Shown one piece after another: positions 2,701-43,868 of a DNA stretch of 64,000 bases. Under the pieces are notes generated by a model, which was given only the letters and a program-made list of their open reading frames with translations, searched no databases and was not told where the DNA came from. The stretch comes from Candidatus Elulimicrobiales bacterium (GTDB lineage Bacteria > Patescibacteriota > Minisyncoccia > Phycocordibacterales > UBA5272): NCBI GenBank assembly GCA_034927475.1, contig JAYFPW010000002.1, forward strand, positions 45,372 to 109,371, written 5' to 3'. Made by a program: the position numbers and the translations under genes. How positions within the stretch are numbered: position 1 is the first letter of the stretch; each line of letters begins with the position of its first letter.

Positions 2701-3873
2701 TTAAGGTAATAGTTTTTTAAAAAAAGATTTTATATTTTTTATTAGATTTTTAAAGATTTTACTAACTTTATAATCTGAAGTTATAATAGGGGCTAAAAAA
2801 GTTAAACCATAAGCCCTCGTATAAGCAGAATCTCCAAGTTGACCATCGGAAAAATCTCTAATTTCTTCTTCGGCATATTTTATAGGTAGCTTCATATAAT
2901 TTTTAAACATATAATCTATTTTTGGAAGTTTACTACCATTTCCAGTTAAAACAATTCCACCCGGCAATAATTCTCTTCTACTAATTTTATCTAATTCTAA
3001 ATTAATTCTTTCACAAATGAATTCTACTCTAGCTTCGATGATTTCTTCTAATTTTCTTTTTGAATAAGAAGCGTCACTTCTACCGAGTTTAATATTTTCA
3101 GCTTCTTCAAGAGAAACTTGTAATCCTAAAGCGATATCGTTTGTAATATCGTTGCTACCAATACCAATAACAGAAGCTAAGATAGGATTATTATTTTCAT
3201 AAACTAAGACGCTAGTTGTAGAGTGTCCAATATTTATAAGAGCTGTGCCAGCAATTCTTTGCCTTTTATTTAAAAGGGGAATACTTTCTGCAAATGGTCC
3301 AATAACCACTTCTTCAATATTTAATTTAATACCTTTTAAAATGTCTTCTAATTTTTCTATATAAAGACTAGGGCAAAAAACAAATAAAAATTTTCCATCA
3401 ATTCTTTTTCCAAACATACCAACAGGCACTCCAGAAACTTCACTAAGATCGACTTTGTATTTTATAGGTATAGTATGAATAACTCTTTTATTTTTTATAT
3501 TTGAAACAGAAAGTGCAGCTTCTTTTTCTAGTCTGTCTAAATCTAAAGTGGTGATCTCATTATTAATGCTAGAGTTTATAATCGAAGCATTGGTTATACC
3601 ACTACTTATACCGGAAGTATTTAAAGACAAAACTATATGATTTTTTCTTTCAAAAGCATTACTTCTAAATTGGTTTATAACTTTATGGAGAGTGTTTGCT
3701 AGTTCTTTTTCATCGACAATATTTCCTTTATAAATACCTTCTGTTTCGACTTCTTGTATTTCAATTATTTCTGGATTTATTGTAGATTCTTCAGAATGAA
3801 GAACCGCACAAACTTTTGTTGTACTACTTCCTATATCGACACCAATAACAAGATGAGATTTTGCCTTACTCAT
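2701..3873 (-). CDS. ftsA: cell division protein FtsA
   Basis: Actin/HSP70-fold N-terminus VIGVDIGSSTTKV. Sits immediately upstream of ftsZ in the conserved ftsA-ftsZ order. Confidence 0.85.
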   Translation of the reverse strand: MSKAKSHLVIGVDIGSSTTKVCAVLHSEESTINPEIIEIQEVETEGIYKGNIVDEKELANTLHKVINQFRSNAFERKNHIVLSLNTSGISSGITNASIINSSINNEITTLDLDRLEKEAALSVSNIKNKRVIHTIPIKYKVDLSEVSGVPVGMFGKRIDGKFLFVFCPSLYIEKLEDILKGIKLNIEEVVIGPFAESIPLLNKRQRIAGTALINIGHSTTSVLVYENNNPILASVIGIGSNDITNDIALGLQVSLEEAENIKLGRSDASYSKRKLEEIIEARVEFICERINLELDKISRRELLPGGIVLTGNGSKLPKIDYMFKNYMKLPIKYAEEEIRDFSDGQLGDSAYTRAYGLTFLAPIITSDYKVSKIFKNLIKNIKSFFKKLLP

Positions 3874-3877
3874 TCTT

Positions 3878-4279
3878 TTATTTTATCATATATTTTTTAA
3901 GATATTTTGATTCTGAAGCTTCCATTTTTTCTCCATGATCTAAACCTTTGAGATGTAAACACCCGTGAATTATGAGTAGAATTAGAAAGTTTTCATAAGA
4001 TAAAGAAAAGTTTTTAGCTTCACTTCTAGCTACAGAGAGGCAAATAAAAATTTCTCCTTCTTTTTTAGAAAGGGGAAAAGATAAAATATTTGGAGTGTAA
4101 TCTTTCTTTCTGTATTTAATATTTAATTCTTTTGCGAGAGCTGGAGATATAAAATTTACTGAAAGAAAAAAACTTTCTCCTAAAATTTCGTTTTTAATTT
4201 TCTGAATACGAGAAAAAAGAGCTTTTTCAATAAGCCCTTTTTTCTTATTTACTATTAGATTTTTCTCTTCTAATATCAT
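3878..4279 (-). CDS. ybeY: rRNA maturation endoribonuclease YbeY
   Basis: Metal-binding motif HGCLHLKGLDH (H-x3-H-x5-H) and 133 aa size match UPF0054/YbeY. Confidence 0.8.
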   Translation of the reverse strand: MILEEKNLIVNKKKGLIEKALFSRIQKIKNEILGESFFLSVNFISPALAKELNIKYRKKDYTPNILSFPLSKKEGEIFICLSVARSEAKNFSLSYENFLILLIIHGCLHLKGLDHGEKMEASESKYLKKYMIK

Positions 4280-4569: not shown

Positions 4570-5910
4570 TTATTTCAACTTTTTTAAATACTCACCAAGT
4601 TTTTCTATGGAAACAATTTCTTGAGAATGAGTTTTCATATCGCGAACAATAGCTGTACCATCTAAAGCTTCTTTTTGTCCAAAAATTATACAATAAGGAA
4701 CTCCCATTTTATCTGCCATAGCCAGTTGAGCAGAAAGAGATTCTTTAGAAAGATTTTGATAAACAGATACTCTATTTTCTCTTAAAATCTCCATTATGGT
4801 TAGTGATTTTAATTTTGCTTCAAAACCAAGCTGTAGAAAATAAATTTTTGGTTTTTTAATTATTTTTGGCTCAAGATTTTTACATTCTTTAAATAACATC
4901 ATTCTATCTAAACCTAGAGCTGCCCCAACTGCTGGAATTTCTTTTTTTGATCCAAGTTCACGTCCTAAATAATTATATCTTCCACCGCCGGTGATAGCTA
5001 TTTCTTTTTCTTTTCCACCTTCTATTTCATTTCCTTCTTCATCTACCTCTTTTTCTAATTTAATAACTTCAAAAACTGTGTGGGTATAATAATTTAAACC
5101 TCGCACTAAAGAATTATTAATTCTGTAGTCTATTCCCATTTCTTCTAAATATTGAAGTACTTCACGAAAGTGCTTTTTAGAATCCGTACTTAAATAATTA
5201 ATAGGTGCTGGCGCTAACTCTTTCAAAGGTTGGCATTGTTCATTTTTACAATCGAGGAGGCGAAGAGGATTTGTTAAAAGTCTATTTTGGCAATCTTTAC
5301 AGATTTTTGCGCTATGTTTTTTGTAATAAGAAATAAGCTCTCTTGTGAAGACAACTCTGTCCTCTTTACTGCCCATACTATTTATATCGATAATCAAATC
5401 TTCAAAGCCATATTCTTTTAATATAGTCATGAGTGTACGTATAATAAGAGCGTCAGCAATAGATTTTTCTGTACCCAATATTTCTAAATTAAATTGTCTA
5501 AATTCTCTAAGTCTACCTTTTTGAGGATTGTCATGTCTCCAAAGTGGTCCAAAACTATAAAACATTATCGGTTGAGGTAAATTGTTCATTCCGTTTTCAA
5601 TATAGCTACGCATTATGCTGGCTGTATATTCTGGTCTTAAAGCAACTCTTTCGCCACCTTTAGTTTTGAAAGAATAAATCTCTTTATCTACCACATCTGT
5701 CCCTTCTCCTATACCTCTCACAAAAACCTCTTCTTTTTCTAAAGCTGGAGTTTCTATTGGTTTAAAACCATAATAGACAGCAATTTCTTGTGCCTTTTCA
5801 AACATTCCTTGAAATTGATAAAATTTCTCTCCGAAAATATCATTCATTCCTTTTAAGGAAGTACTAGGTTCAACATTTTTAATTTTCTTCTCTTCTTTTT
5901 TCTTTCTCAT
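4570..5910 (-). CDS. hisS: histidine--tRNA ligase with a Cys4 insertion
   Basis: Class II aaRS motifs (RVALRPEYTASIMRSY; GGGRYNYLGRELG) and a HisRS-type anticodon-binding C-terminus. Contains the inserted C-x2-C-x14-C-x4-C segment KICKDCQNRLLTNPLRLLDCKNEQCQ. Confidence 0.9.
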   Translation of the reverse strand: MRKKKEEKKIKNVEPSTSLKGMNDIFGEKFYQFQGMFEKAQEIAVYYGFKPIETPALEKEEVFVRGIGEGTDVVDKEIYSFKTKGGERVALRPEYTASIMRSYIENGMNNLPQPIMFYSFGPLWRHDNPQKGRLREFRQFNLEILGTEKSIADALIIRTLMTILKEYGFEDLIIDINSMGSKEDRVVFTRELISYYKKHSAKICKDCQNRLLTNPLRLLDCKNEQCQPLKELAPAPINYLSTDSKKHFREVLQYLEEMGIDYRINNSLVRGLNYYTHTVFEVIKLEKEVDEEGNEIEGGKEKEIAITGGGRYNYLGRELGSKKEIPAVGAALGLDRMMLFKECKNLEPKIIKKPKIYFLQLGFEAKLKSLTIMEILRENRVSVYQNLSKESLSAQLAMADKMGVPYCIIFGQKEALDGTAIVRDMKTHSQEIVSIEKLGEYLKKLK

Positions 5911-21589: not shown

Positions 21590-24500
21590 TTTCCTGATAG
21601 GAAATATAAGAGCATAAGGTGGATGCCTTGGTTCAAGAAAGCGATGAAAGACGTGATCAGGCTGCGATAAGTTTCGGGGAGGTGCCTAATAACCTTCGAT
21701 CCGGAAATTTCTGAATGAGGAAACTCTCCTGAAGTAATGTTCAGGAATCTAGGGAGCATATCTTTAGAGGCAAACCTGGGGAAGTAAAACATTCTAGTAC
21801 CCAGAGGAAAAGAAAACAAAGTTTATTCCGCAAGTAGCGGCGAGCGAAAACGGAGGAGCCCAAATTCTTTGTAGTAATACAAAGTTGGTTGTAGGCTTGA
21901 GATGTAGAATTATCTAGAGGAGTTACAAAAGTTGATTATAGGTTAAGCTATTGGAAAGTAGCACCACAGAGGGTGATAGTCCCGTAATCGAAATCTTCAA
22001 CTCTCTTTTATCTCTTGTCCTGAGTAGTTCGAGACACGAATAGCTCGGATGAATCTGCCGGAACTAACCGGTAAGGCTAAATATTTCTTGAGACCGATAG
22101 TGAACTAGTACCGCGAGGGAAAGGTGAAAAGAACCCTGGAAAGGGAGTGAAATAGAACTGAAACCTTATGTTTACAAAGAGTAGGAGAGGACTTGTTCCT
22201 CGACTGCGTGCCTATTGAAGAATGAGCCAACGAGTCTTATTATCCAGCCGGCTAAGCAGCATAAAGTTGTGGAGCCACAAGCGAAAGCGAGTGTTAATAG
22301 CGCGAAATAAAGGTTGAGTAATAAGGACCCGAAGCCGGATGAGCTACCCATGAGCAGGGTGAAGCTTGTCGAAAGACAAGTGGAGGCCCGAACCAATAAG
22401 TTGTGCGACTCTTTTGGATGACTTGTGGGTTGGAGTGAAAAGCTAATCGAATTCGGTAATAGCTGGTTCTCGTCGAAATATTTTTTGGAATAGCGTCAGG
22501 TGGTCCCTTTGGGGGTAGAGCACTGGAAGGTCTTGACTAGTGGAAACACGGCAATACCTATCAAACTCCGAATACCAAAGATTATCAGCCTGGCAGTCAG
22601 ACTCCGGGGGCGAAGCTCCGGTGGTCTAAAGGGAAACAGCCCAGATCTAAAATTAAGGTCCCTAAGTATATGCTAAGTGTAAGCAAGGATGTGAAGTTTC
22701 ATTGACAATGAGGATGTTGGCTTAGAAGCAGCCATCATTGAAAGAAAGCGTAACAGCTCACCCATCGAGAGACTCTGCGCCGCAGATGATCGGGACTCAA
22801 GCATATCACCGAAGTTTAGGGATTGTATGTTCGCATACAATCGGTAGACGAGTGTTCCACTCTGCGTTGAAGCGAAAGGGGTGACCCATCGTGGAGCGTG
22901 TGGAAGTAAGAATGTTGGCACAAGTAACCGCAATGGAGGTGAGATCCCTCCACGCCGAAAGAATAAGGTTTCCTTCGCAATGATTGTCAGCGAAGGGTTA
23001 GTCGAGCCTAAGGGGATGGCAATGCGCCGGACCCGATGGACATAAGGTTAATATTCCTTAACTTGGTATAAATGTGATGGAATGACGCATTGTTGTACTC
23101 TATGCCTCTTATCAGATTGAGGTCTTTGTAATGATTAGCGAGAGCATGTAAATCAGTTCTCGAATACTGAGAGTTATGAAGCGAAGCTTGTAGCAATACT
23201 GGTGAAGATAGAGGAGCACGGTGCCGAGAAAAGTTTCTACATCTACTGAATAGTAGATATTGTCTTGTGAATAATGTTTCTAGTCATCTATGAAATATTA
23301 TTCACAAATGTGACAATACTTAAGTTTATATCAAACCGTACCGCAAACCGACACAGGTATTCAGGTCGAGTAGACCCAGGCGAACGAGTGATTTCTCCCT
23401 AAGGAACTAGGCAAAAAAGCAGCCGTAAGTTAGCAATAAGGCTTGCCTGTAGCAATACAGGCCGCAGTGAAAGTTTCTCTGGCAACTGTTTATCTAAAAC
23501 ACAGCTCCATGCGAACTCGTAAGAGTATGTATATGGGGTGACACCTGACCAATGCGGGAAGGTCAAATATCGGTGGTCACATGGTGATCTTGAAATTTAT
23601 TATTCGTAATTTATTTTGAGTTCACCATGTGGCTGACTGATATAAGCCCCCGTCAATGTCGGCGATAACTATAATCGTCCTAAGGTAGCGAAGTTCCTTG
23701 TCTGGTAAGTTCAGACGTGCACGAATGGTGTAATGACTGGGGAACTGTCTCAGGGAGTAGCTCGGTGAAAATACAGTGGCGGTGAAGATGCCGCCTACCT
23801 GCAGATAGACGAAAAGACCCCGTGAGCTTTACTCTAGCTTGGTATTGTGTTTATTAATTTGTTGCGTAGAATAGTGGTGAGACTTTGAAGTATAGATTTT
23901 GGTTTATATGGAGTCGACAGTGAAATAGCCATCTGCATCTTGGTAAACACTAACCTAAACGGAAAAAACGTTTAGAGACAGTATCTGGTGGGGAGTTTTA
24001 CTGGGGTGGTACCCTCCTAAAAGGTAACGGAGGGGTTTATTAAGGTCAGTTAGGCGCGAATGGAAACCGTGCCGATAGTGTAATGGCATAAACTGGCTTG
24101 ACTGTAAGACGGGCATGTCGAGCAGATACGAAAGTAGAACATAGTGAACCGACAATTCGCATTAGATGCGGTTGAAGATTAACGGATAGAAGCTACCACG
24201 GGGATAACAGGCTAGTTCCACCTAAGCGTCCATAGCGACGGTGGAGTTCGGCACCTCGATGTCGGCTCATCTTATCCTGGGGGTGAAGAAGCTCCCAAGG
24301 GTATGGCTGTTCGCCATTTAAAAAGATACGCGAGCTGGGTTCAAACCGTCGTGAGACAGGTTGGTCTCCTATCTACTGCAGGCGCTTGAATATTGAGAAG
24401 ATTTGTCTCTAGTACGAGAGGACCGAGATGAACTGACCTCTGGTGTGTGGGCTCTGACGCTAGTTGGATCGCCCAGTAGCCAAGTCGGGAATGGATAAGT

Positions 24501-24645
24501 TCTGAAAGCATCTAAGAACGAAGCCAACTTCAAGATAAGTATTCTATGAGGGTCGTAAGAGATGATTACGTTGATAGGATCTAAGTGTAAGTACAGTAAT
24601 GTACTCAGCTGAGGATTACTAATAACCCGATTCTTATCAGGAAAT
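21590..24645 (+). rRNA. rrl: 23S ribosomal RNA (approximate ends, ~3.05 kb including AT-rich expansion segments)
   Basis: 5' aagagcataaGGTGGATGCCTTGG...GATGAAaGACGTG. Internal conserved blocks include GTACCGCAAACCGACACAGGT, GGATAACAGGCT and ACGAGAGGACCG. 3' GAAAGCATCTAAG... Terminal helix cctgatagg/cttatcagg. Confidence 0.9.
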
Positions 24646-24909
24646 ATATTTATCATGTTTTTACAGACTTAACTCTTGTATCCTAAAAATTATTTTTGAT
24701 TGATTTTTAATTAATTTTCTTTAATTTTTAGGATTCAGGAGTTAAAAAGCCACGTCGGTGTGCTTAATATCTAGTTAACAATTCTTAAGATTAATAGAAA
24801 AATTCTATCAAAATTTTTCTTTAATTTTAACTTGCGTTGGCGATTTAACGACATTAAGCATCCGACGATCTAATACAGGATTCTAAACTCAAATCAAAAG
24901 ATTTGAGTA

Positions 24910-25028
24910 TTCTGTTCTCCCGATTCAGATGAAGGGTAACACACCATCCCATTTCGAACTGGATCGTGAAGACTTCACTCAGCGATGGTAGCGTCCGCGC
25001 AAGAGTAGCTTTTCGGGAGAACAGAGTA
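24910..25028 (+). rRNA. rrf: 5S ribosomal RNA
   Basis: Terminal helix tctgttctcccg/cgggagaacaga, with an internal ...CCCATTTCGAACTGG...GTAGCGTCCGCGCAAGAGTAG pattern ~265 nt after the 23S. Confidence 0.8.
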
Positions 25029-25066
25029 CTTAAATTTGAAGCAATTTGACTTTATGTGCTCTACTC

Positions 25067-25097
25067 AAAAACACCTTGATTTATCAGGGTGTTTTTG
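25067..25097 (+). terminator. terminator after 5S rRNA
   Basis: aaaaacacctt-N8-agggtgttttt hairpin plus T-run. Confidence 0.6.
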
Positions 25098-25123
25098 ATT
25101 TTGTGAAATCAAATTTTTATGAT
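25095..25123 (+). promoter_or_regulatory. promoter TTGATT-17-TATGAT for rplJ-rplL
   Basis: Hexamers with a 17-nt spacer, overlapping the T-run of the 5S terminator. Confidence 0.5.
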
Positions 25124-25223
25124 ATATTTATATTCGTAAACCAAAGAAGTGAGTGAGCAAATATAGCTCTTAAAATACAAACTCACGGAGGTCGAACTTA
25201 GGCATTTTGCCAGTGTTTACCTT

Positions 25224-25260
25224 AAATCTCTCTAATCTCTTTGGTTGAGAGATTTTTGTT
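25224..25260 (+). promoter_or_regulatory. leader hairpin plus U-tract (putative attenuator) in the rplJ leader
   Basis: aaatctctc-N14-gagagattt followed by ttgttt, located ~100 nt before the rplJ ATG. Confidence 0.4.
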
Positions 25261-25277
25261 TATAAAAATAAAAATAT

Positions 25278-37670: not shown

Positions 37671-38774
37671 ATGAAAATTTTATACATAATTACTAAAAGT
37701 AATTGGGGTGGAGCACAAAAATATGTTTTTGATTTGGCTAAACATACAAAAGAGCTAGGAGAAGATGTTTCGGTCGCTTTTGGAGGAAATGGGGCTTTAG
37801 CTGAAAAACTAAAAGAGAAAAATATTCGCACTATAGAGATTTCTGATTTAGAAAGAGATGTAAATTTAGAAAAAGAAATTAAAGTTTTTAGAAATCTTTA
37901 TAAAACCCTTAAAACTGAAAAACCAGATATTATTCATTTAAATAGTTCAAAGATTGGAGCACTTGGATCTTTGCTTGGAAGAATGGCTGGAATTAAAAAA
38001 ATTATTTTTACAGCTCACGGATTTCCTTTCCGCGAAGAAAGGGGATTTTTTCAAATTTTAATAATTAAGTTTTTGTCTTGGCTTACAATTATTTTTTCCC
38101 ATAAGACAATTTGTGTTTCTAAAAAAGATTTTGATGATGTTAAAGACTGGTTATTTGTTAAAGATAAAATTTTTACTATTCACAATGGTATCGATTTAAA
38201 TGAAATTCCAGAAAATCTATCTTTAGAAAGAGGTTCCAATATTGTAAAGATCGTTTCTATTGGAGAATTGCATAAAAATAAAGGATTTGAATATGGAATA
38301 AAAACTATTTCAGAAATGAGGAAGAAAATTCAAAATTTTAAATATACAATTTTTTCTTTTGGTGGTGATGAAAAATTTAATTTAGAAAAAATGATAAAAG
38401 ATTTATCTTTGCAAGATTTTGTAGAGCTAAATATCAATCGAGAAAAACATAGCGATTTTCTAAAAGATTTTGATATTTATTTTATGCCTTCCATTAAAGA
38501 AGGTTTGCCATATGTCTTATTAGAGGCTGGGTTGAATTCTTTGCCTTTGGTTGCTAGTGATACAGGAGGAATTGGTGAAATTGTAGAAAATTATAAAAAT
38601 GGATTTTTAATAAAACCGAAAGACATAAATGGTTTTGAGTTGGCTTTGGAAAAATTGATAGAAAGTAAAAATCTGAGAGAGGAATTTGGAAGAGAGGCAA
38701 GAGATAAAGTTAAAAAAGAGTTTAGTTTAGAGAAAATGTTAGAAAAAACTAAAGAACTCTATTTTAACAATTAA
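37671..38774 (+). CDS. family 4 (GT-B) glycosyltransferase
   Basis: C-terminal EGLPYVLLEAGLNSLPLVASDTGGIGEIV (E-x7-E motif region). Confidence 0.8.
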   Translation: MKILYIITKSNWGGAQKYVFDLAKHTKELGEDVSVAFGGNGALAEKLKEKNIRTIEISDLERDVNLEKEIKVFRNLYKTLKTEKPDIIHLNSSKIGALGSLLGRMAGIKKIIFTAHGFPFREERGFFQILIIKFLSWLTIIFSHKTICVSKKDFDDVKDWLFVKDKIFTIHNGIDLNEIPENLSLERGSNIVKIVSIGELHKNKGFEYGIKTISEMRKKIQNFKYTIFSFGGDEKFNLEKMIKDLSLQDFVELNINREKHSDFLKDFDIYFMPSIKEGLPYVLLEAGLNSLPLVASDTGGIGEIVENYKNGFLIKPKDINGFELALEKLIESKNLREEFGREARDKVKKEFSLEKMLEKTKELYFNN

Positions 38775-38949
38775 GTTTGTGTTTTTAAGAAAAATGTGTT
38801 ATATTTATATTAGTTCTAATTAAGCCGTAAGTTTGTCAGATGTGAATCTCGCAAACAGACAATTTTGTCATATTTTTAATTCCCTTCACTGCACTAAAAC
38901 AGTGAAGGGTTTTTTGTTTTACTATTTTCATGTTAAAATCTAAAAACTG

Positions 38950-39020
38950 GGTCTATAGTTCAGTGGTAGAATAGCGGTCTCCAAAACCGTTGACCGAGGT
39001 TCGAATCCTCGTGGACCCGC
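38950..39020 (+). tRNA. tRNA-Trp (anticodon CCA)
   Basis: Manual fold: acceptor gggtcta/tggaccc, D-arm gttc-agtggta-gaat, anticodon stem gcggt/accgt with loop cuCCAaa, T-arm cgagg-TTCGAAT-cctcg. CCA is not encoded. Confidence 0.85.
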
Positions 39021-39021
39021 C

Positions 39022-39090
39022 TTCGGTTCGCCGAAGCGAACCTATGGCGTGGCAAAGCCCGCCGTGGTTTGCGAAGGCGACCTTGATATA
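39022..39090 (+). other. GC-rich structured island directly 3' of tRNA-Trp (cuucgg-UUCG-ccgaag hairpin plus further GC stems)
   Basis: ~65% GC over ~70 nt in a ~30% GC genome. Perfect hairpin cttcgg ttcg ccgaag, then gcgaacc...ggtttgc and ggcg...cgcc pairings. Confidence 0.4.
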
Positions 39091-39093
39091 AAT

Positions 39094-39327
39094 ATGTTTT
39101 ATTATGTATATATTTTAAAATGCAAAGATGGATATTATTCAGGGTGCACAAATAATTTGAAAGAAAGAATTAATAGACATATAAAAGGGCAAGTGACCGC
39201 CACAAAAGATAGAAGACCTATACAATTAATAAATTATTTCGCTTTTAATGATAAATATAAAGCATATAATTTTGAGGTATACTTAAAAACAGGTTCAGGA
39301 AGAACTTTTTCTAAAAAACACTTTTAA
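39094..39327 (+). CDS. GIY-YIG nuclease superfamily protein (small stand-alone)
   Basis: FYYVYILKCKDGYYSGCTNNLKERINRH carries the two signature boxes (V-Y-I ... Y-S-G) plus Arg and the conserved N...H. Start at MFYYVY (ATG 39094). Confidence 0.75.
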   Translation: MFYYVYILKCKDGYYSGCTNNLKERINRHIKGQVTATKDRRPIQLINYFAFNDKYKAYNFEVYLKTGSGRTFSKKHF

Positions 39328-39335
39328 AAAATATT

Positions 39336-39887
39336 ATGAAAACATTTTTTTGCTCACAACATACAAATATTAAAGATGAAGAATGGAAAAACAAAGGCTG
39401 CTCTGTTTCAGCTTTATGGATGACTTTGAAATCTTTAAAGACAAACTTTTCTTTATCTTTAGACGAATTATTAAATGAAGCTATTAATATTAAAGCTTTT
39501 AGTGATTCTGGTTTTTGGAGGCACGATAGAATTGCTGTTTTAGCACATAATCATGGACTCGCAGCTTATGCTGAAGAATTTAAAAGTATTCCTTTTGGCG
39601 AAGAGACAGAGTATGCTGAAAGTTTAGCAGAATATGGAATAGAAAAAATATTTAATTTTTTGAAAGAAGAAAAAGGACTTGTCATAGTTTCTGTTCCAAA
39701 AGATTTTTCTGAAGAGAATAAACCGCACTCTATTCTTTTAACTAGCGCAAAAGAAGAAGGAGGAAGATTTTTTGTCTATAATGATAGTGATAAAAAAACT
39801 GAAGAAGAAGGGCAAAGTTTAGAAATTTCTCTTGAAATATTTAAGAAAAACTGGAGAAGGTTAGCAATTTTTATAAATAAAATATAA
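39336..39887 (+). CDS. putative C39-like (papain-fold) cysteine peptidase
   Basis: Candidate catalytic Cys in GCSVSALWMTL and His in KPHSILLTSAKEEGGRFFVYND. Spacing and context resemble the Peptidase_C39-like family. Confidence 0.45.
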   Translation: MKTFFCSQHTNIKDEEWKNKGCSVSALWMTLKSLKTNFSLSLDELLNEAINIKAFSDSGFWRHDRIAVLAHNHGLAAYAEEFKSIPFGEETEYAESLAEYGIEKIFNFLKEEKGLVIVSVPKDFSEENKPHSILLTSAKEEGGRFFVYNDSDKKTEEEGQSLEISLEIFKKNWRRLAIFINKI

Positions 39888-39912
39888 AATAATAATACCA
39901 AAATAAAAATTT

Positions 39913-40539
39913 ATGTCATTTTTAGAAAATTTAAATTGGAGATACGCTACAAAAAAATTTGATACCACTAAAAAAATAAGTGAAGAAAATTTACAAAAAA
40001 TAAGAGAAGCTATTAGACTAGCTCCTGCCAGTATGGGGTTGCAACTTTATAAAATTCTTGAAGTTACAAATGGGGAAGTTAGAGAAAAAATGAGAGCTGC
40101 TTCAAATAATCAACCTCAAGTCACCGATGCCGATAGAGTTTTTGTATTTTTGGCAAGTATTGATGGAGAAAATAGAGTAGAAGAGATGTTTACTGAAATG
40201 AGTGGTGGAAATGCTGAAGTTAGAGAAAACAATCTAAAAGGCTATGAGGATATGGTTCGGGGATTTGCACTTTCTAAGAGCCACGACAATCTTTTAGCTT
40301 GGTCCCAGAAAAATCTTGGTATAGCTCTCGGATTTGCTTTAGCTGCTTGTGCAGAATTAAAAATAGATGCTTGTCCAATGGATGGATTTGACCCTCTACA
40401 AATTAAAGAAATCTTAGGAGCTGGTGAAAACTTTTTCCCAGTTGCTTATTTAGCAGTTGGCTATAGAGATGAGAGTGATGAGACTAGTTCTCGTCCAAAA
40501 TGGAGGCTTCCTCTTGATAAAACAATTCAAAAAATCTAA
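39913..40539 (+). CDS. NAD(P)H nitroreductase family protein (NfsB/FRase I-like), paralog 1
   Basis: N-terminal FLENLNWRYATKKFD, RxA PASMGLQ region and C-terminal ...GY. Length 208 aa. Confidence 0.8.
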   Translation: MSFLENLNWRYATKKFDTTKKISEENLQKIREAIRLAPASMGLQLYKILEVTNGEVREKMRAASNNQPQVTDADRVFVFLASIDGENRVEEMFTEMSGGNAEVRENNLKGYEDMVRGFALSKSHDNLLAWSQKNLGIALGFALAACAELKIDACPMDGFDPLQIKEILGAGENFFPVAYLAVGYRDESDETSSRPKWRLPLDKTIQKI

Positions 40540-40563
40540 TTTTTTCTGTGATACAATTAAATC

Positions 40564-41208
40564 ATGAAAAAGAAAAATGTAGTAGTTTTAATTTTGATTT
40601 TATTATTAGTATTATTTTTAAGTATTTATTGGTTATTTAAGGCGGCCTATAAGTTTCAAGCAAACTCAAATACAGCTACCACCACTGGGGAATTAACACA
40701 ACTCTCTGATGCTCAAAAGTTTCAAGCCGAGTATCCTGGGGTAGCTATTGACAATCGTTTTGTTTATCGTTCAGCAGAAGAAATTATTAATATTTTGAAA
40801 GGAGGAACAGGATTGGTTTATTTAGGTTTTCCTGAATGTCCTTGGTGTCAAAGATATACAGTTTATCTAGATGAGGTTGCTAGAGAACAAAATCTAGAGA
40901 AGATTTATTATTATAATGTTCGCCAAATACGAACAGATAATACTCCTGAATATCAAGAAATGGTAGCTCTTTTAGGAGAAAATCTAGACAAAGATACGGA
41001 AGGTAATCCTAGAATTTTTGTTCCAGATCTTACAGCTGTAAAAAATGGAGAAATTATTGCTCATGACAATTCTACTTCGCTTTTAAATTCTGCTGTCGAT
41101 GGTACACCAGATGAATGGTGGACTGAAGAGAGAGTAAATTCTTTTAAAGAAAATCTTAAAAAGATAATCGAGCCGGTTAATATTTGTTACGAAGTTTGCA
41201 ACAGCTAA
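40564..41208 (+). CDS. secreted/membrane-anchored thioredoxin-fold protein with CPWC active-site motif
   Basis: N-terminal hydrophobic anchor, then LVYLGFPECPWCQRY (CxxC in thioredoxin-fold context). Confidence 0.55.
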   Translation: MKKKNVVVLILILLLVLFLSIYWLFKAAYKFQANSNTATTTGELTQLSDAQKFQAEYPGVAIDNRFVYRSAEEIINILKGGTGLVYLGFPECPWCQRYTVYLDEVAREQNLEKIYYYNVRQIRTDNTPEYQEMVALLGENLDKDTEGNPRIFVPDLTAVKNGEIIAHDNSTSLLNSAVDGTPDEWWTEERVNSFKENLKKIIEPVNICYEVCNS

Positions 41209-41240
41209 CTTCCATTATCAAGTTAATTAATTAAAAATTT

Positions 41241-41873
41241 ATGTCATTTTTAGAAAATTTAAATTGGAGATACGCTACTAAAAGATTTGATACAACTAAA
41301 AAAGTTAAAGAAGAAGATGTGAAGAAGATTCGTGAAGCTATTCGTATGACTCCTACTAGTCTCGGAGTACAAATGTTCCATGTCGTAGAAGTTGTGAGTC
41401 AAGATTTAAAAGATAAATTGAGAGCCATTTCTTTCGATCAAGAGCAAATGTCTACCGCGGATAGGATTTTTGTCTTTTGTGCTAGAAAAGATTTAGCGGA
41501 TAGAACAGAAGAAATGTTTATGGATATGACAAATAATGACGAAGAGTTTAGAAAAAACGATAAAGACATTTCTCAGTATGAAAAATCAGTTAAATTCTTT
41601 GCGGGGCAATTGGGTGCTGACAGAATTCCAGAATGGTCTGCCAGGGAAGCCCATATTGTCTTGGGATTTGCTCTCGCAGCCTGTGCAGAATTAAAAATAG
41701 ACTCTTGCCCAGTTGGTGGATTTGATCCAGTCAAAGCTAAAGAGATTTTAAATATGGATTTAGACTTTATGCCAGTTGTGTGTTTGCCAATTGGTTATAG
41801 AGATGAGACAGATGAACATCTCAAGTTTAAAAAATGGAGATTTCCGGAAGACAAAATCTTTGAAAAAATGTAA
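41241..41873 (+). CDS. NAD(P)H nitroreductase family protein, paralog 2
   Basis: The first 16 residues (MSFLENLNWRYATK(K/R)FD) are almost identical to paralog 1, with the same fold signature throughout. Confidence 0.8.
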   Translation: MSFLENLNWRYATKRFDTTKKVKEEDVKKIREAIRMTPTSLGVQMFHVVEVVSQDLKDKLRAISFDQEQMSTADRIFVFCARKDLADRTEEMFMDMTNNDEEFRKNDKDISQYEKSVKFFAGQLGADRIPEWSAREAHIVLGFALAACAELKIDSCPVGGFDPVKAKEILNMDLDFMPVVCLPIGYRDETDEHLKFKKWRFPEDKIFEKM

Positions 41874-41885
41874 TTCTTAAAACTT

Positions 41886-41920
41886 AAAAATACGCCAAAT
41901 AAGGCGTATTTTTATTTTTT
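41886..41920 (+). terminator. intrinsic terminator
   Basis: atacgcc-aaataa-ggcgtat followed by ttttatttttt. Confidence 0.65.
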
Positions 41921-41975
41921 CTAACAAAGTCTTTATGTTATAATGCTTTCAAATCGTTTAACTTTTAAAGCTAAT

Positions 41976-43868
41976 ATGACAATAAATGAAATTCGAAAAA
42001 AATATTTAGAGTTTATGAAGAGTAATGGACACGCCATTGTTCAATCTTCTTCGCTTGTTCCAGAAAATGATCCTACAACTCTTTTTACCGCTGCGGGAAT
42101 GCAACCAATGATTAATTATATTTTAGGAGCTAAACATACAGCCGGAAATAGAATCGCGGACACACAAAAATGTTTTCGCTCTCAAGATATAGAAGAAATA
42201 GGAGACAATAGACATACAACTTTTTTTGAAATGCTTGGAAATTGGAGTTTTGGAGACTATTTTAAAAAAGAGCAAGTAGGCTGGATGTTTAAGTTTTTAA
42301 CTGATTCTGAAATTGGTCTTGGTTTAGATAAAAACAGATTATATTTTTCTTGCTATTCTGGAAATGAAGATTTAAACGTTCCAAAAGATGAGGAAACAAA
42401 AAAATATTGGTTAGAAAATGGTGTGGCCGAAGATAGAATTTATTTCTATGATGATAAGAAAAATTGGTGGAGCCGAAGTGGTGCTCCAGCAAATATGCCT
42501 TTAGGGGAGCCTGGTGGACCAGATTCTGAAATGTTTTTCGACTTCGATCCAAATAATGAGAAAAAAATTCACGAAAATAGTAAGTTTAAAAATGAAGAAT
42601 GTCATCCAAATTGCGATTGTGGAAGGTTTGTAGAAATTGGAAATAGTGTTTTCATTCAATACAAAAAGACGGAAGTTGGACTAGAAGAACTTTTACAAAA
42701 GAATGTGGACTTTGGTGGGGGTCTTACTAGAATGGCAGCAGCAACTATCGATGATAGCGACATTTTCAGTTTAGATATTTTTGGTAATGCAAAAACTATA
42801 TTAGAAAATCTTTCTAAGCATACATATACTGGCAATGAAACTTCTTTTAGAATAATTTTAGATCATATTCACGCTGCTACATTTTTAATTGGCGACGGAG
42901 TTGTTCCTGGAAATAAAGATCAAATGTATTTTGTAAGAAGACTTATTCGTCGCGCAATTGTCGCCGGACACAAATTAGACATTCATGACAATTTTACAAA
43001 GCAAATAGGGGAGACTTTTGTAGAAAATTATAAAGGATCAGAAGAATATCTTGGTGACAATCTTTCTCGCAATAAAGAAATAATTTTATCTGAGCTTGAA
43101 AAAGAAGAAAATAAATTCCGAAAGACTTTGTCTAATGCTATGAAAAAGTTTGATAAAGCAATAAGGATTGCAGTAGGTACTTATGTACCAGGACAACCTA
43201 TTTCGGAAAATTATACTAAGACATTATCTTCAGATATTGTCTTTGAAATGATTACATCAGATGGTCTGCCTAAAGAAGTCATAAAAGAAGAAGCTGAAGA
43301 GAGAGACATTTCTATTGATTGGTATGAAGTTGATATGAAATTATTAAATCATAAAAATTTATCTCGAACTGCTAGCGAAGGCATGTTTAAAGGTGGATTA
43401 GCTGACCAATCTGAAATCACTACGGCTTTGCATTCTGCTTGTCACTTAATGCTTGCAGGTATGCGAAAGGTTTTAGGAGAAAATGTAACTCAAGCTGGAA
43501 GTAATATAAATTCTGAAAGATTACGCTTTGACTTTACTTTTGATAGAAAAGTCGAAGAAGATGAAATTGAAGCTATAGAAAATTATGTAAATAGAGCTAT
43601 CGAAGAAGGCTTTACTACAGTAATTGAAGAAATGGAAAAAGAAAAAGCTAGAGAAGGCGGAGTGACAGGAGCTTTTTGGGATAAATATCCAGAAATTGTA
43701 AAAGTCTATAATATGATTGGAGAAGGTGGAGAAGTTTATTCCAGAGAACTTTGTGGAGGTCCACATATTCATAACAGTACAGATTTTATGAAAGGAAAAA
43801 CTTTCAGAATTTCCAAACAAGAAGCTGTCTCTGCTGGAGTTCGTAGATTTAAAGGGGTTCTTGAATAA
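41976..43868 (+). CDS. alaS: alanine--tRNA ligase, short form lacking the C-terminal C-Ala/DHHA1 domain
   Basis: Class II catalytic core (FTAAGMQPM; FEMLGNWSFGDYFK) and editing-domain zinc motif (HSACHLM...CGGPH). Only ~630 aa versus ~870 typical. Confidence 0.8.
   Translation: MTINEIRKKYLEFMKSNGHAIVQSSSLVPENDPTTLFTAAGMQPMINYILGAKHTAGNRIADTQKCFRSQDIEEIGDNRHTTFFEMLGNWSFGDYFKKEQVGWMFKFLTDSEIGLGLDKNRLYFSCYSGNEDLNVPKDEETKKYWLENGVAEDRIYFYDDKKNWWSRSGAPANMPLGEPGGPDSEMFFDFDPNNEKKIHENSKFKNEECHPNCDCGRFVEIGNSVFIQYKKTEVGLEELLQKNVDFGGGLTRMAAATIDDSDIFSLDIFGNAKTILENLSKHTYTGNETSFRIILDHIHAATFLIGDGVVPGNKDQMYFVRRLIRRAIVAGHKLDIHDNFTKQIGETFVENYKGSEEYLGDNLSRNKEIILSELEKEENKFRKTLSNAMKKFDKAIRIAVGTYVPGQPISENYTKTLSSDIVFEMITSDGLPKEVIKEEAEERDISIDWYEVDMKLLNHKNLSRTASEGMFKGGLADQSEITTALHSACHLMLAGMRKVLGENVTQAGSNINSERLRFDFTFDRKVEEDEIEAIENYVNRAIEEGFTTVIEEMEKEKAREGGVTGAFWDKYPEIVKVYNMIGEGGEVYSRELCGGPHIHNSTDFMKGKTFRISKQEAVSAGVRRFKGVLE

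Follow-up and report, generated by a model that had tools for sequence, protein, structure and literature searches.

Directly downstream of a tRNA-Trp(CCA) gene in a 64,000-nt stretch of a Candidatus Elulimicrobiales contig (JAYFPW010000002.1; hereafter the window, average GC content 31.5%) lies a compact unit of 306 nt (39022-39327, + strand), which consists of a GC-rich, structured leader and an open reading frame (ORF) for a stand-alone GIY-YIG nuclease. This unit, here called the cassette, is the subject of the present analysis. The tRNA gene (38949-39021, + strand) is called by ARAGORN and scores 70.1 bits with the Rfam tRNA model. A terminator-like hairpin with a T-run (38882-38909, + strand) closes the upstream glycosyltransferase genes and marks the left limit of the tRNA-Trp transcription unit. 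The tRNA ends in ...GGACCCG(73)C(74)C(75) (sequence ...GGACCCGCC, also written ...GTGGACCCGCC), and because the base after C75 is T, A76 is not encoded. The left edge of the cassette falls directly after C75 and its right edge is the stop codon of the GIY-YIG ORF, as obtained by comparing the junctions of the window with those of three related loci (L082, L085 and L088). A first-pass annotation had listed the tRNA-Trp, a GC-rich hairpin, the GIY-YIG gene and, further downstream, a C39-like peptidase, two nitroreductases and a CPWC thioredoxin-fold protein, and all of these are found in place.

The leader (39022-39093, 72 nt) has a GC content of 55.6%, which rises to 61.9% in its paired core (39025-39087); the GIY-YIG ORF has 24.8%. 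The first four bases, TTCG (39022-39025, + strand), are nearly invariant across loci, with the variants TTTG, TACG and TCCG. Folded alone, the leader forms one long imperfect hairpin with a minimum free energy of -38.1 kcal/mol (z = -5.26), and none of 200 shuffled sequences is as stable. In this fold, which is additionally supported by covariation and by a covariance model (CM R1), a GC-rich rod (39025-39082, + strand) is formed by the helices P1 (39025-39027 and 39029-39032 with 39076-39082) and P2 (39036-39042 with 39066-39072) and is capped by an apical hairpin, H (39046-39063, + strand; GGCG-T-GGC AAA GCC-CGCC). An alternative local hairpin, HP1 (b:b'), pairs 39025-39031 with 39036-39042, and the cuucgg-UUCG-ccgaag hairpin that had been picked out earlier is only one possible local pairing, and not the one favoured by the comparative data. 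No other copy of the leader is found in the window with CM R1 or by sequence search. In searches against Rfam 15 of the whole window at the gathering threshold and of 38780-39400 at E ≤ 10, nothing but tRNA reaches the gathering score over the leader, and the best non-tRNA match over 39014-39078 has 19 bits and lies on the opposite strand; the searches of 14 related loci return tRNA and tmRNA only. The GC-rich segment noted by the first-pass annotation is thus real. Its reading as foreign DNA does not stand, because leaders are GC-rich in hosts of 29-57% GC and the nuclease ORF is host-like, which indicates that the high GC content is structural.

The true start of the nuclease is the ATG at 39094, which gives a protein of 77 aa (39094-39327, + strand); a start at GTG 39049 would read through the hairpin. 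PF01541 matches residues 3-69 of the 77 with 45.3 bits (cut-off 22.6, E = 1.1e-11). Residues Y6, Y15, G17, R25, H29 and T37 are invariant in 90 aligned copies and E61 is present in 89 of them, so that the catalytic residues (the Tyr of the GIY and YIG motifs, the Arg, the His and the Glu) are retained, which suggests that these proteins are under selection as active enzymes. The best relatives of known structure, BH0048 (1zg2, E = 1.3e-9) and EF2693 (1ywl, E = 5.5e-4), are both UPF0213 proteins, and by sequence comparison the nuclease belongs to the bacterial Slx1-like/UPF0213 minimal GIY-YIG type, a stand-alone domain. BH0048 and EF2693 were placed in the bacterial Slx1 family by Dunin-Horkawicz et al. 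(PMC1564403), who describe this family as a minimal GIY-YIG domain that has no auxiliary domains and lacks the C-terminal Asn found in the UvrC/I-TevI lineage, and eukaryotic Slx1 as a structure-specific nuclease. The window protein ends shortly after the Glu motif and shows a clade-specific conserved C-terminal motif, FEKYLKTGSGR. Public gene calls of 91-132 aa (P0014, P0023, P0026, P0027, P0034, P0038 and P0049) begin inside the tRNA or the leader, and their N-termini translate the tRNA T-arm (GSNPT, VRIPP) and then an Arg/Ser/Pro-rich stretch. Judged by what they translate, these extensions are non-coding sequence and represent a systematic annotation artefact. Because the N-termini in the database translate the T-arm, the arrangement of tRNA and nuclease was suspected to be conserved.

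Presence and absence of the cassette at the same locus, with precise boundaries, are observed among close relatives that share the flanking genes of the window (sugar transferase, GT4 ... alanyl-tRNA synthetase (AlaRS), orf164, orf485, IF-1, S13, S11 and S4). The empty allele occurs in L088, where the tRNA-Trp with its encoded CCA (...GGACCCGCCA; the empty site is also written ...GGACCCGCCAGAATAT...) reads ...GTGGACCCGCCA and is followed by GAATAT and the ATG of the C39-like gene, with PedC-like and AlaRS genes downstream. The 8 nt after the cassette in the window (AAAATATT) are the counterpart of AGAATAT in this empty allele. When the empty and full alleles are compared, the insert lies between C75 and A76 and ends on the right with the stop codon. 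In L085-87, an identical tRNA is followed by TTTGGTTCGCTGAAGCGAACCTACGGCGTGGCGAAGCCCGCC, which holds a partial leader and no nuclease, upstream of C39-like, PedC-like, nitroreductase and AlaRS genes. The retained half of the leader stops exactly after CCCGCC of the hairpin, and the stretch of 18 nt after it is similar to the final 18 nt of the nuclease ORF (16 of 18 positions agree; 28 of 500 shuffles score as high, p ~0.06), which is tentatively read as a deletion. Besides the window, full units are present in L082 (followed by C39-like, PedC-like, nitroreductase, malic enzyme and AlaRS genes) and in L002 (followed by C39-like and AlaRS genes), where the cassette stands behind a tRNA-Trp-like gene with the anticodon UCA and its stop codon is immediately followed by a degenerate second leader. 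The proposal of a mobile accessory island is thus supported for the hairpin and the nuclease, an apparently mobile feature for which empty, partial and full alleles exist in relatives; it is not supported past the GIY-YIG stop codon, where the order of the tRNA-Trp, C39-like, PedC-like and AlaRS genes is conserved.

The UCA-anticodon gene of L002, the closest relative (4828-4900), has a Trp-like body, is called SeC by ARAGORN and lies 630 nt downstream of a normal tRNA-Trp(CCA); the tRNA might read UGA.

More than 576 stretches that encode relatives of the nuclease were obtained when one genome per species was scanned, and the best 80, with 58-79% identity, were kept. These 80 loci, which come from Patescibacteria and Bacteroidota, were selected solely by their GIY-YIG homologue. 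A tRNA gene on the same strand lies 60-230 nt upstream in 63 of the 80, and several of the remaining loci are cut by a contig end yet still begin ...CGCCTTCG. The cassette is co-directional with the tRNA, which is overwhelmingly tRNA-Ser (all isoacceptors) or tRNA-Trp; the Bacteroidota copies follow tRNA-Asp, -Val, -Met or -Pro. By a crude sequence rule applied within the studied loci, a leader directly follows 46 of 79 tRNA-Ser and 13 of 16 tRNA-Trp genes, and none of the tRNA-Arg (0/32), -Leu (0/7), -Tyr (0/4), -Thr (0/4) or -Cys (0/4) genes. The junction between tRNA and leader is nearly always ...CGCC|TTCG, with the left junction after (Y)CCGCC, and the occupied junction reads ...CCCGCCTTCGG.... 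Nucleases linked to tmRNA genes (L010, L033, L054 and L070) form a separate protein clade; in L010, the tmRNA occupies 3275-3684 and the nuclease 3801-4028, and the latter is ~49% identical to the tRNA-Ser-linked copy of the same locus.

With CM R1, which was built on the rod, a + strand match at E ≤ 0.01 is obtained in 78 of the 80 loci, 31 of them by construction, and the window leader, itself among the 31 sequences of the model, scores 80.5 bits. Some leaders contain an extra hairpin with the loop GCUUUAGCGAAG, and in the Bacteroidota form the first hairpin is followed by a T-run and there is an AT-rich spacer. All forms begin with TTCG, contain a segment that can pair with the tRNA-leader junction, and have hairpin H shortly before the ORF. 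A search of metagenome contigs with the pattern CCGCCTTCGN{17,22}GGCGN{7,12}CGCC, intended as a protein-independent sampling of leaders, proved too loose: all 120 stretches were chance matches, on contigs mostly of 57-75% GC, without tRNA and without GIY-YIG.

The 3' strand of hairpin H is a copy of at least the last six bases of the tRNA before it, and the 5' strand is complementary to them. In the window, the 3' strand GCCCGCC (39057-39063) follows a tRNA-Trp that ends in ACCCGCC. The repeated 3' end is TCCGCC for tRNA-Ser at most loci, CCCGCC for tRNA-Trp as in the window, ACCGCC for a tRNA-Ser variant (L022), CGCCCAC for tRNA-Val (L068), GCCCAC for tRNA-Met (L074) and CCACAC for the tmRNA-linked copies; for tRNA-Asp (L038), the end AGACCGCC plus TTCG is repeated over 12 nt (AGACCGCCTTCG). 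The only position that varies much is the base six positions before C75, which is T for tRNA-Ser, C for tRNA-Trp and tRNA-Met, and A for tRNA-Asp. At this position, the base in H equals that of the tRNA in all 37 loci with a correctly identified H, a match that is reached in none of 10,000 trials in which tRNAs and hairpins were re-paired at random. L075 carries a change at a second position, which is found alike in the tRNA end, the 5' strand and the 3' strand of H. The base after the CC of the hairpin is A in 20 of the 37 loci, and in these the hairpin therefore holds the full ...CCGCCA of an unoccupied tRNA gene. In the tmRNA-linked copies (including L054 and L070), the imperfect strand is sometimes the 5' and sometimes the 3' strand. 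Apart from the 6-7 nt inside the hairpin, the search for a downstream att site that the first-pass annotation had recommended yields nothing in the window: the 19-nt tRNA 3' end has no second copy in the window at up to 3 mismatches, and a repeat search of 38700-42100 finds no att-type repeats.

In a neighbour-joining tree, which is poorly resolved for a 77-aa protein, the Trp-linked nucleases are scattered among the Ser-linked ones, and the nearest neighbour is non-Trp-linked for 9 of the 11 (six Ser, one Pro and two without a called upstream tRNA). This scatter suggests that the match between hairpin and tRNA was probably re-established several times rather than inherited once.

Covariation was analyzed in an alignment, A2, of 31 type-1 leaders that share the architecture of the window leader. 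Under the rod model (P1, P2 and H), 87.7% of cells are paired, 11 of 23 pairs are changed on both sides, and the covariation score is 0.310 compared with 0.149 in column shuffles (0 of 500 reach the observed value); the rod was derived from the same 31 leaders on which it was scored, and alternative helices score similarly. Controls with slid partners show 33-39% pairing and covariation scores of 0.05-0.11. The competing helices also covary, with 92% of cells paired in b:b', 91% in b:e and 79% in b':b'', whereas HP2 (b'':e) is the weakest helix (67.7%) and may be a by-product of the other pairings. Additionally, the last six bases of the tRNA pair with the 5' strand of H in 98.9% of cells, with UA in 21 sequences and CG in 9. 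Because competing helices covary, at least two mutually exclusive conformations of the leader are conserved; the rod and a three-hairpin model are both supported, and no single fold is chosen. G-U pairs outnumber A-C mismatches in the helices, by 37 to 22 overall and by 10 to 0 in H.

The loci also display a range of rearrangements. In L081, L051 and L024, a block of 10-15 nt of the tRNA 3' end plus the whole leader stands on both sides of the nuclease gene. L016 (22-1931) contains 5.3 tandem units of leader plus GIY-YIG gene, each of 363 nt and 99% identical, at the end of a 430-kb Bacteroidales contig, which reflects either a recent amplification or an assembly effect at the contig end. Tandem leader copies occur in L063, L064 and L020, and solo leaders, i.e. 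leaders with no nuclease gene, follow tRNA-Ser genes in L023, L054, L063 and L067. Integration of a circular form by Campbell-type recombination through CCGCC of the hairpin was dropped as a general mechanism, as it predicts the wrong order of leader parts; such recombination could explain the loci with long flanking repeats.

Other small elements are found at tRNA 3' ends in the same set of loci. In L002 (4195-4710), three tandem units of ~180 nt follow the tRNA-Trp(CCA), and each ends in a 21-nt copy of the tRNA 3' end (CGAATCCTCGTGGACCCGCCA). The unit folds into an acceptor-like stem and a T-arm-like stem (-61 kcal/mol, z -4) and has no Rfam match. A unit after tRNA-Ser in L009 (4667-4815) is related to it, with a common conserved core. 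In L022 (4862-4915), L058 (4822-4932) and L057/L059 (4775-4865), an insert separates a complete tRNA-Ser from a repeated copy of its 3' end, and the GIY-YIG leader comes after that repeated copy; the inserts of L022 and L058 have GGATGAGAAGTTTAYCCTGAGCGA...GGGAATCC in common.

With moderate confidence, the cassette is interpreted here as a selfish unit that resembles a homing endonuclease gene, is specific for tRNA 3' ends and would be expressed by read-through from the tRNA. The only + strand terminator-like sites in the region are those at 38882-38909 and 41885-41914, with none between 38909 and 41885, and shuffled sequence gives promoter-like matches at least as often as the region itself. 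As no terminator-like site separates the tRNA from the ORF and promoter-like matches do not exceed the shuffled level, transcription that starts at the tRNA promoter and reads through probably accounts for expression of the nuclease. The tRNA would be freed by normal 3' processing and CCA addition, the work of RNase Z and CCA-adding enzymes, so that the host would lose nothing; the nuclease mRNA would then start with the rod as a stable 5' end. The nuclease may cut DNA at or near the (Y)CCGCC^ end of tRNA genes, or a hairpin or cruciform that contains this end, and recombinational repair would copy the cassette into empty alleles, as with a free-standing homing endonuclease. Recombination between leader copies would give rise to the tandem arrays, flanking repeats, solo leaders and deletions. 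The sole ORF of the cassette is the GIY-YIG gene, and no recombinase or integrase gene is present in it.

A number of observations weigh against this interpretation. The evidence for cutting and transfer is comparative throughout. Profile searches and the alignment of the 77-aa protein reveal no DNA-binding module besides the catalytic domain, which gives it no evident means of recognising a specific site, and a hairpin that holds an internal copy of the target is not something that classical homing alone would predict. The unit is also not bounded by a target-site duplication. The history of the cassette is largely vertical, because copies within one genome are only 41-73% identical in amino acid sequence, i.e. 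old paralogues, the nucleases of the window, L082 and L002 are 77-79% identical at a syntenic locus, and the GC content of the nuclease ORF is host-like; mobility, if real, is slow or mostly between genomes. A collection of 2.9 million viral contigs contains a single distant relative (44% identity), so no obvious vehicle is known and a phage origin lacks support. The solo leader of L023 is well preserved (65.8 bits with CM R1), and given such leaders the leader could work without the nuclease. The excess of G-U pairs leans towards selection on RNA, or on one (transcribed) DNA strand, which is suggestive and not decisive, and it fits a role at the RNA level at least as well. Additionally, ascertainment through the protein biases the frequencies of solo leaders and of copies without a tRNA.

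Comparison with known systems places the cassette closest to free-standing homing genes. In T-even phages, the seg genes (GIY-YIG) and mob genes (HNH), with SegB in the tRNA cluster of T4, are likewise intronless small nuclease genes between conserved genes; they are present or absent in close relatives, are expressed with their neighbours and lie at RNA-gene landmarks, and the seg genes share the GIY-YIG chemistry. SegB and its tRNA context are treated in PMC13096335. The differences are that Seg proteins have ~200 aa or more and include a DNA-binding domain, whereas the cassette protein is a catalytic domain of 77 aa, of the Slx1-like and not the I-TevI/UvrC lineage, and is chromosomal in Patescibacteria and Bacteroidota rather than phage-borne; unlike the phage genes, the cassette abuts C75 of a tRNA or tmRNA and carries a structured leader with a copy of the target. 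The UPF0213/COG2827 Slx1-like proteins BH0048 and EF2693 are alike in being stand-alone minimal domains that lack the C-terminal Asn region, although the window protein is shorter than those structures (77 aa versus 96-107 aa), and the structure-specific activity of Slx1 would suit a hairpin or cruciform substrate.

Three further systems share individual traits. IS200/IS605 elements insert 3' of a short specific sequence without target-site duplication, contain a subterminal hairpin and recognise the target by pairing with an internal sequence. The cassette similarly lies 3' of (Y)CCGCC and has an internal complement in a hairpin, a resemblance that falls short of demonstrating such a mechanism. 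It encodes neither an HUH/Y1 transposase nor TnpB, and no hairpin could be found at its right end. Strand transfer by way of a covalent intermediate is beyond the chemistry of a GIY-YIG hydrolase, and nothing points to single-stranded intermediates. Integrative elements that target tRNA and tmRNA genes resemble the cassette in target class, in leaving a functional tRNA and in carrying a copy of the tRNA 3' end, and the flanking repeats of L081, L051 and L024 resemble attL/attR; however, the cassette has no integrase, is ~300 nt long, and in most copies, the window included, its repeat is only 6-8 nt and lies in a hairpin upstream of the gene instead of at the distal end. I-TevI represses its own expression through an operator that resembles the homing site just upstream of its ORF, and the target-like copy upstream of the GIY-YIG ORF makes an operator one possible role of the hairpin. 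I-TevI differs in having a separate DNA-binding domain, which the cassette protein lacks, and the copy in the cassette lies in a covarying RNA or DNA structure. By analogy, the cassette would work most like a free-standing homing endonuclease gene with traits of IS200/IS605 and of integrative elements, and it lacks one defining feature of each: the DNA-binding domain, the HUH transposase and the integrase.

A host function is the first alternative, and we regard it as unlikely. The small GIY-YIG enzyme would act on the tRNA or its precursor, for example in 3'-end processing, repair or quality control, and the leader would be a cis-acting RNA that mimics the acceptor end and regulates tRNA-mRNA processing or serves autorepression by the protein. 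Substrate mimics in mRNA leaders are bound in a comparable way by some ribosomal proteins and aminoacyl-tRNA synthetases, each in the leader of its own mRNA. The tRNA end, TTCG and b would pair with b', c and the 5' strand of the hairpin in one state, and the hairpin would be closed in the other. The covariation of the three mutually exclusive helices (92%, 91% and 79%) and the pairing of the tRNA end with H (98.9%) are in line with such a switch, and the preference for G-U over A-C, the constant co-direction with the tRNA and the conservation of solo leaders point the same way, as does the fusion of bacterial Slx1-like GIY-YIG domains to a TrmH-like tRNA methyltransferase, from which a role in RNA metabolism was suggested (PMC1564403). 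However, the tRNAs do not need the unit, given the empty L088 allele and 33 tRNA-Ser genes without a leader, and the pairing with the tRNA end is impossible once the tRNA has been cut off. The Bacteroidota leader as a whole is probably not carried on one RNA, because its first hairpin carries a T-run and the AT-rich spacer comes next. Diverged copies in one genome, each beside its own tRNA (L052, L051/L081), look selfish, and the 99%-identical arrays and flanking repeats resemble selfish elements and not housekeeping genes.

A special case of the selfish cassette, in which base pairing and not the protein selects the target, is considered improbable. Here the 5' strand of H, as leader RNA or single-stranded DNA, would pair with the (Y)CCGCC end of the tRNA gene and direct a cut or insertion, and the 3' strand would mask the 5' strand in cis or pair with the opposite strand of the DNA. 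The unit would then be retargeted by changes in the hairpin, to Ser (UCCGCC), Trp (CCCGCC), Asp (ACCGCC), Val/Met (CCCACC) or tmRNA (CCACAC). This would account for the three-way covariation of the tRNA end and both strands of H at two positions and over at least five target classes, for the interleaving of Trp- and Ser-linked nucleases in the protein tree, for a protein without a DNA-binding domain and for the L085 deletion that ends exactly at CCGCC^ of the hairpin. However, six to eight paired bases confer very little specificity, the tmRNA-linked copies have an imperfect 5' or 3' strand, and the same covariation arises if the hairpin is merely copied from the target or if RNA mimicry is selected. 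To our knowledge, no GIY-YIG nuclease uses a nucleic-acid guide.

The genes downstream of the cassette, all on the + strand, are of a different kind. The C39_2-like papain-fold protein (39336-39887) matches PF13529 weakly, with 19.5 bits (cut-off 24), and its orthologues in L082 and L088 (59-64% identity) have a precomputed PF13529 hit without the mark 'weak'. It is followed by the nitroreductase NTR1 (39913-40539, NfsB-like, 208 aa), the membrane-anchored CPWC thioredoxin-fold protein (40564-41208), whose gene accompanies the C39-like gene in relatives as a conserved partner, and the nitroreductase NTR2 (41241-41873, 210 aa). A terminator-like hairpin with a T-run (41885-41914) is the sole + strand terminator-like site between the tRNA and alaS, which lies downstream of it. 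The CPWC protein has an N-terminal hydrophobic anchor and scores 23.8 bits with TIGR01295 PedC/BrcD (cut-off 120); the label PF20207 'PedC-like' is a precomputed annotation on an identical database protein. Both nitroreductases match PF00881 (cut-off 23.5), NTR1 with 78.0 bits (E = 1e-21) and NTR2 with 62.9 bits (E = 5e-17), and their best NCBIfam model is PRK11053 (NfsB-type), with 94 and 104 bits, below the equivalog cut-off of 227; they are family members and not NfsB orthologues.

The first-pass annotation had interpreted the nitroreductases and the CPWC protein as a tandem duplication with an inserted partner; a recent event of this kind is contradicted by the comparison. NTR1 and NTR2 are 52% identical overall, and each has a closer orthologue in a different relative, NTR2 in L085 (89.5% identity) and NTR1 in L082 (63.5%), both of which have a single nitroreductase. 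The copy number is zero in L088 and L002, one in L082 and L085-87 and two in the window. The near-identical N-termini that had been pointed out do correspond to ~75 nt of almost identical sequence around the two start codons (~39902-39980 and ~41230-41308), which is best explained by a short gene-conversion tract between old paralogues. The order tRNA-Trp, C39-like, PedC-like, AlaRS is kept in L082, L085-87 and L088, with conserved flanks on both sides. Among the 79 other GIY-YIG loci, none has a C39, nitroreductase or PedC-like gene nearby (L002 has a C39-like gene downstream). The GC and GC3 values of these neighbours match the surroundings, which gives no sign of acquisition. In L088 (1662-1745), the ATG of the C39-like gene lies 6 nt after the CCA of tRNA-Trp, which makes co-transcription of the tRNA with the protein genes very probable in this lineage. 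By the conserved synteny, the peptidase and redox genes are a vertically inherited block and not an acquired one, and the C39-like, PedC-like and nitroreductase genes belong, as unrelated residents, to an operon that starts with tRNA-Trp. As a guess from their sequences, the neighbours may comprise a membrane thiol-disulfide oxidoreductase and cytoplasmic flavin reductases.

A peptide-modification system, which had also been considered, finds no evidence here. The impression that no precursor peptide gene is visible is borne out by a scan of 38780-41960, in which every ORF of at least 20 aa besides the annotated genes overlaps one of these genes, no free-standing precursor ORF exists and the intergenic gaps are at most 40 nt. 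No transporter, precursor or immunity gene lies near the CPWC protein in the window, and no RiPP (ribosomally synthesised and post-translationally modified peptide) dehydrogenase is among the NCBIfam matches listed for the nitroreductases. The pair resembles PedC/BrcD and C39 bacteriocin systems in its membrane-anchored CxxC thioredoxin fold and in a papain-like C39_2 domain with the Cys in GCSVSALWM; it differs in scoring far below the family cut-offs (120 and 24 bits), in the lack of an ABC transporter, a double-glycine precursor and an immunity gene, and in being conserved beside tRNA-Trp and alaS in the lineage. Acquisition of 38950-41873 as a single island at tRNA-Trp, perhaps as a peptide-modification system, is hence very improbable: the position next to a tRNA, the partial variability of the block (no nitroreductases in L002 and L088) and the C39-like and PedC-like families that recall bacteriocin maturation speak for it, but it is refuted for the C39 and PedC-like genes by their synteny with tRNA-Trp and AlaRS in L082, L085-87 and L088, and it is opposed by the C39 start 6 nt after the tRNA in L088, by the lack of att-like repeats and precursor ORFs in the window region, by the host-like GC and GC3 of the neighbours and by nitroreductases that are old paralogues matching NfsB-type models.

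Two other features of the window were recorded. The AlaRS ORF (41943-43868) encodes 641 aa with the Pfam catalytic and second additional domains only, which we take to be shorter than a typical bacterial AlaRS. The region 21595-25267 contains 23S rRNA (a 3047-nt match to a model of 2925 positions, with ~120 extra bases), 5S rRNA and an L10 leader, and an Rfam search finds no 16S rRNA match anywhere in the 64,000 nt.

In the literature, of which the coverage was incomplete, so that a prior description is possible, no account of a tRNA- or tmRNA-linked Slx1-like GIY-YIG cassette or of its leader was found, and, with the same incomplete coverage, no link of the UPF0213/Slx1-like family to tRNA genes or to a leader element is reported. 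The cassette and its leader motif, for which no Rfam family was found, thus appear to be undescribed. For annotation, the GC-rich island is not evidence of foreign DNA, and the label of a mobile or peptide-modification module is not appropriate for the redox genes beside it. If the selfish reading is correct, tRNA-Ser, tRNA-Trp and tmRNA genes in two large bacterial groups have had their 3' ends colonised by a very small cassette of ~300 nt that leaves these genes undamaged, an RNA or DNA motif absent from Rfam is defined, and many over-long ORF calls that read through tRNA genes are explained. The obscure but widespread Slx1-like/UPF0213 GIY-YIG proteins would then gain a concrete biological context. 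As to how a domain without a binding module finds a site of 6-8 nt, the answers range from the mundane, with the target copy as an operator, to the remarkable, with the copy as a guide; if the latter were true, the cassette would be a minimal nucleic-acid-guided nuclease and mobile element.

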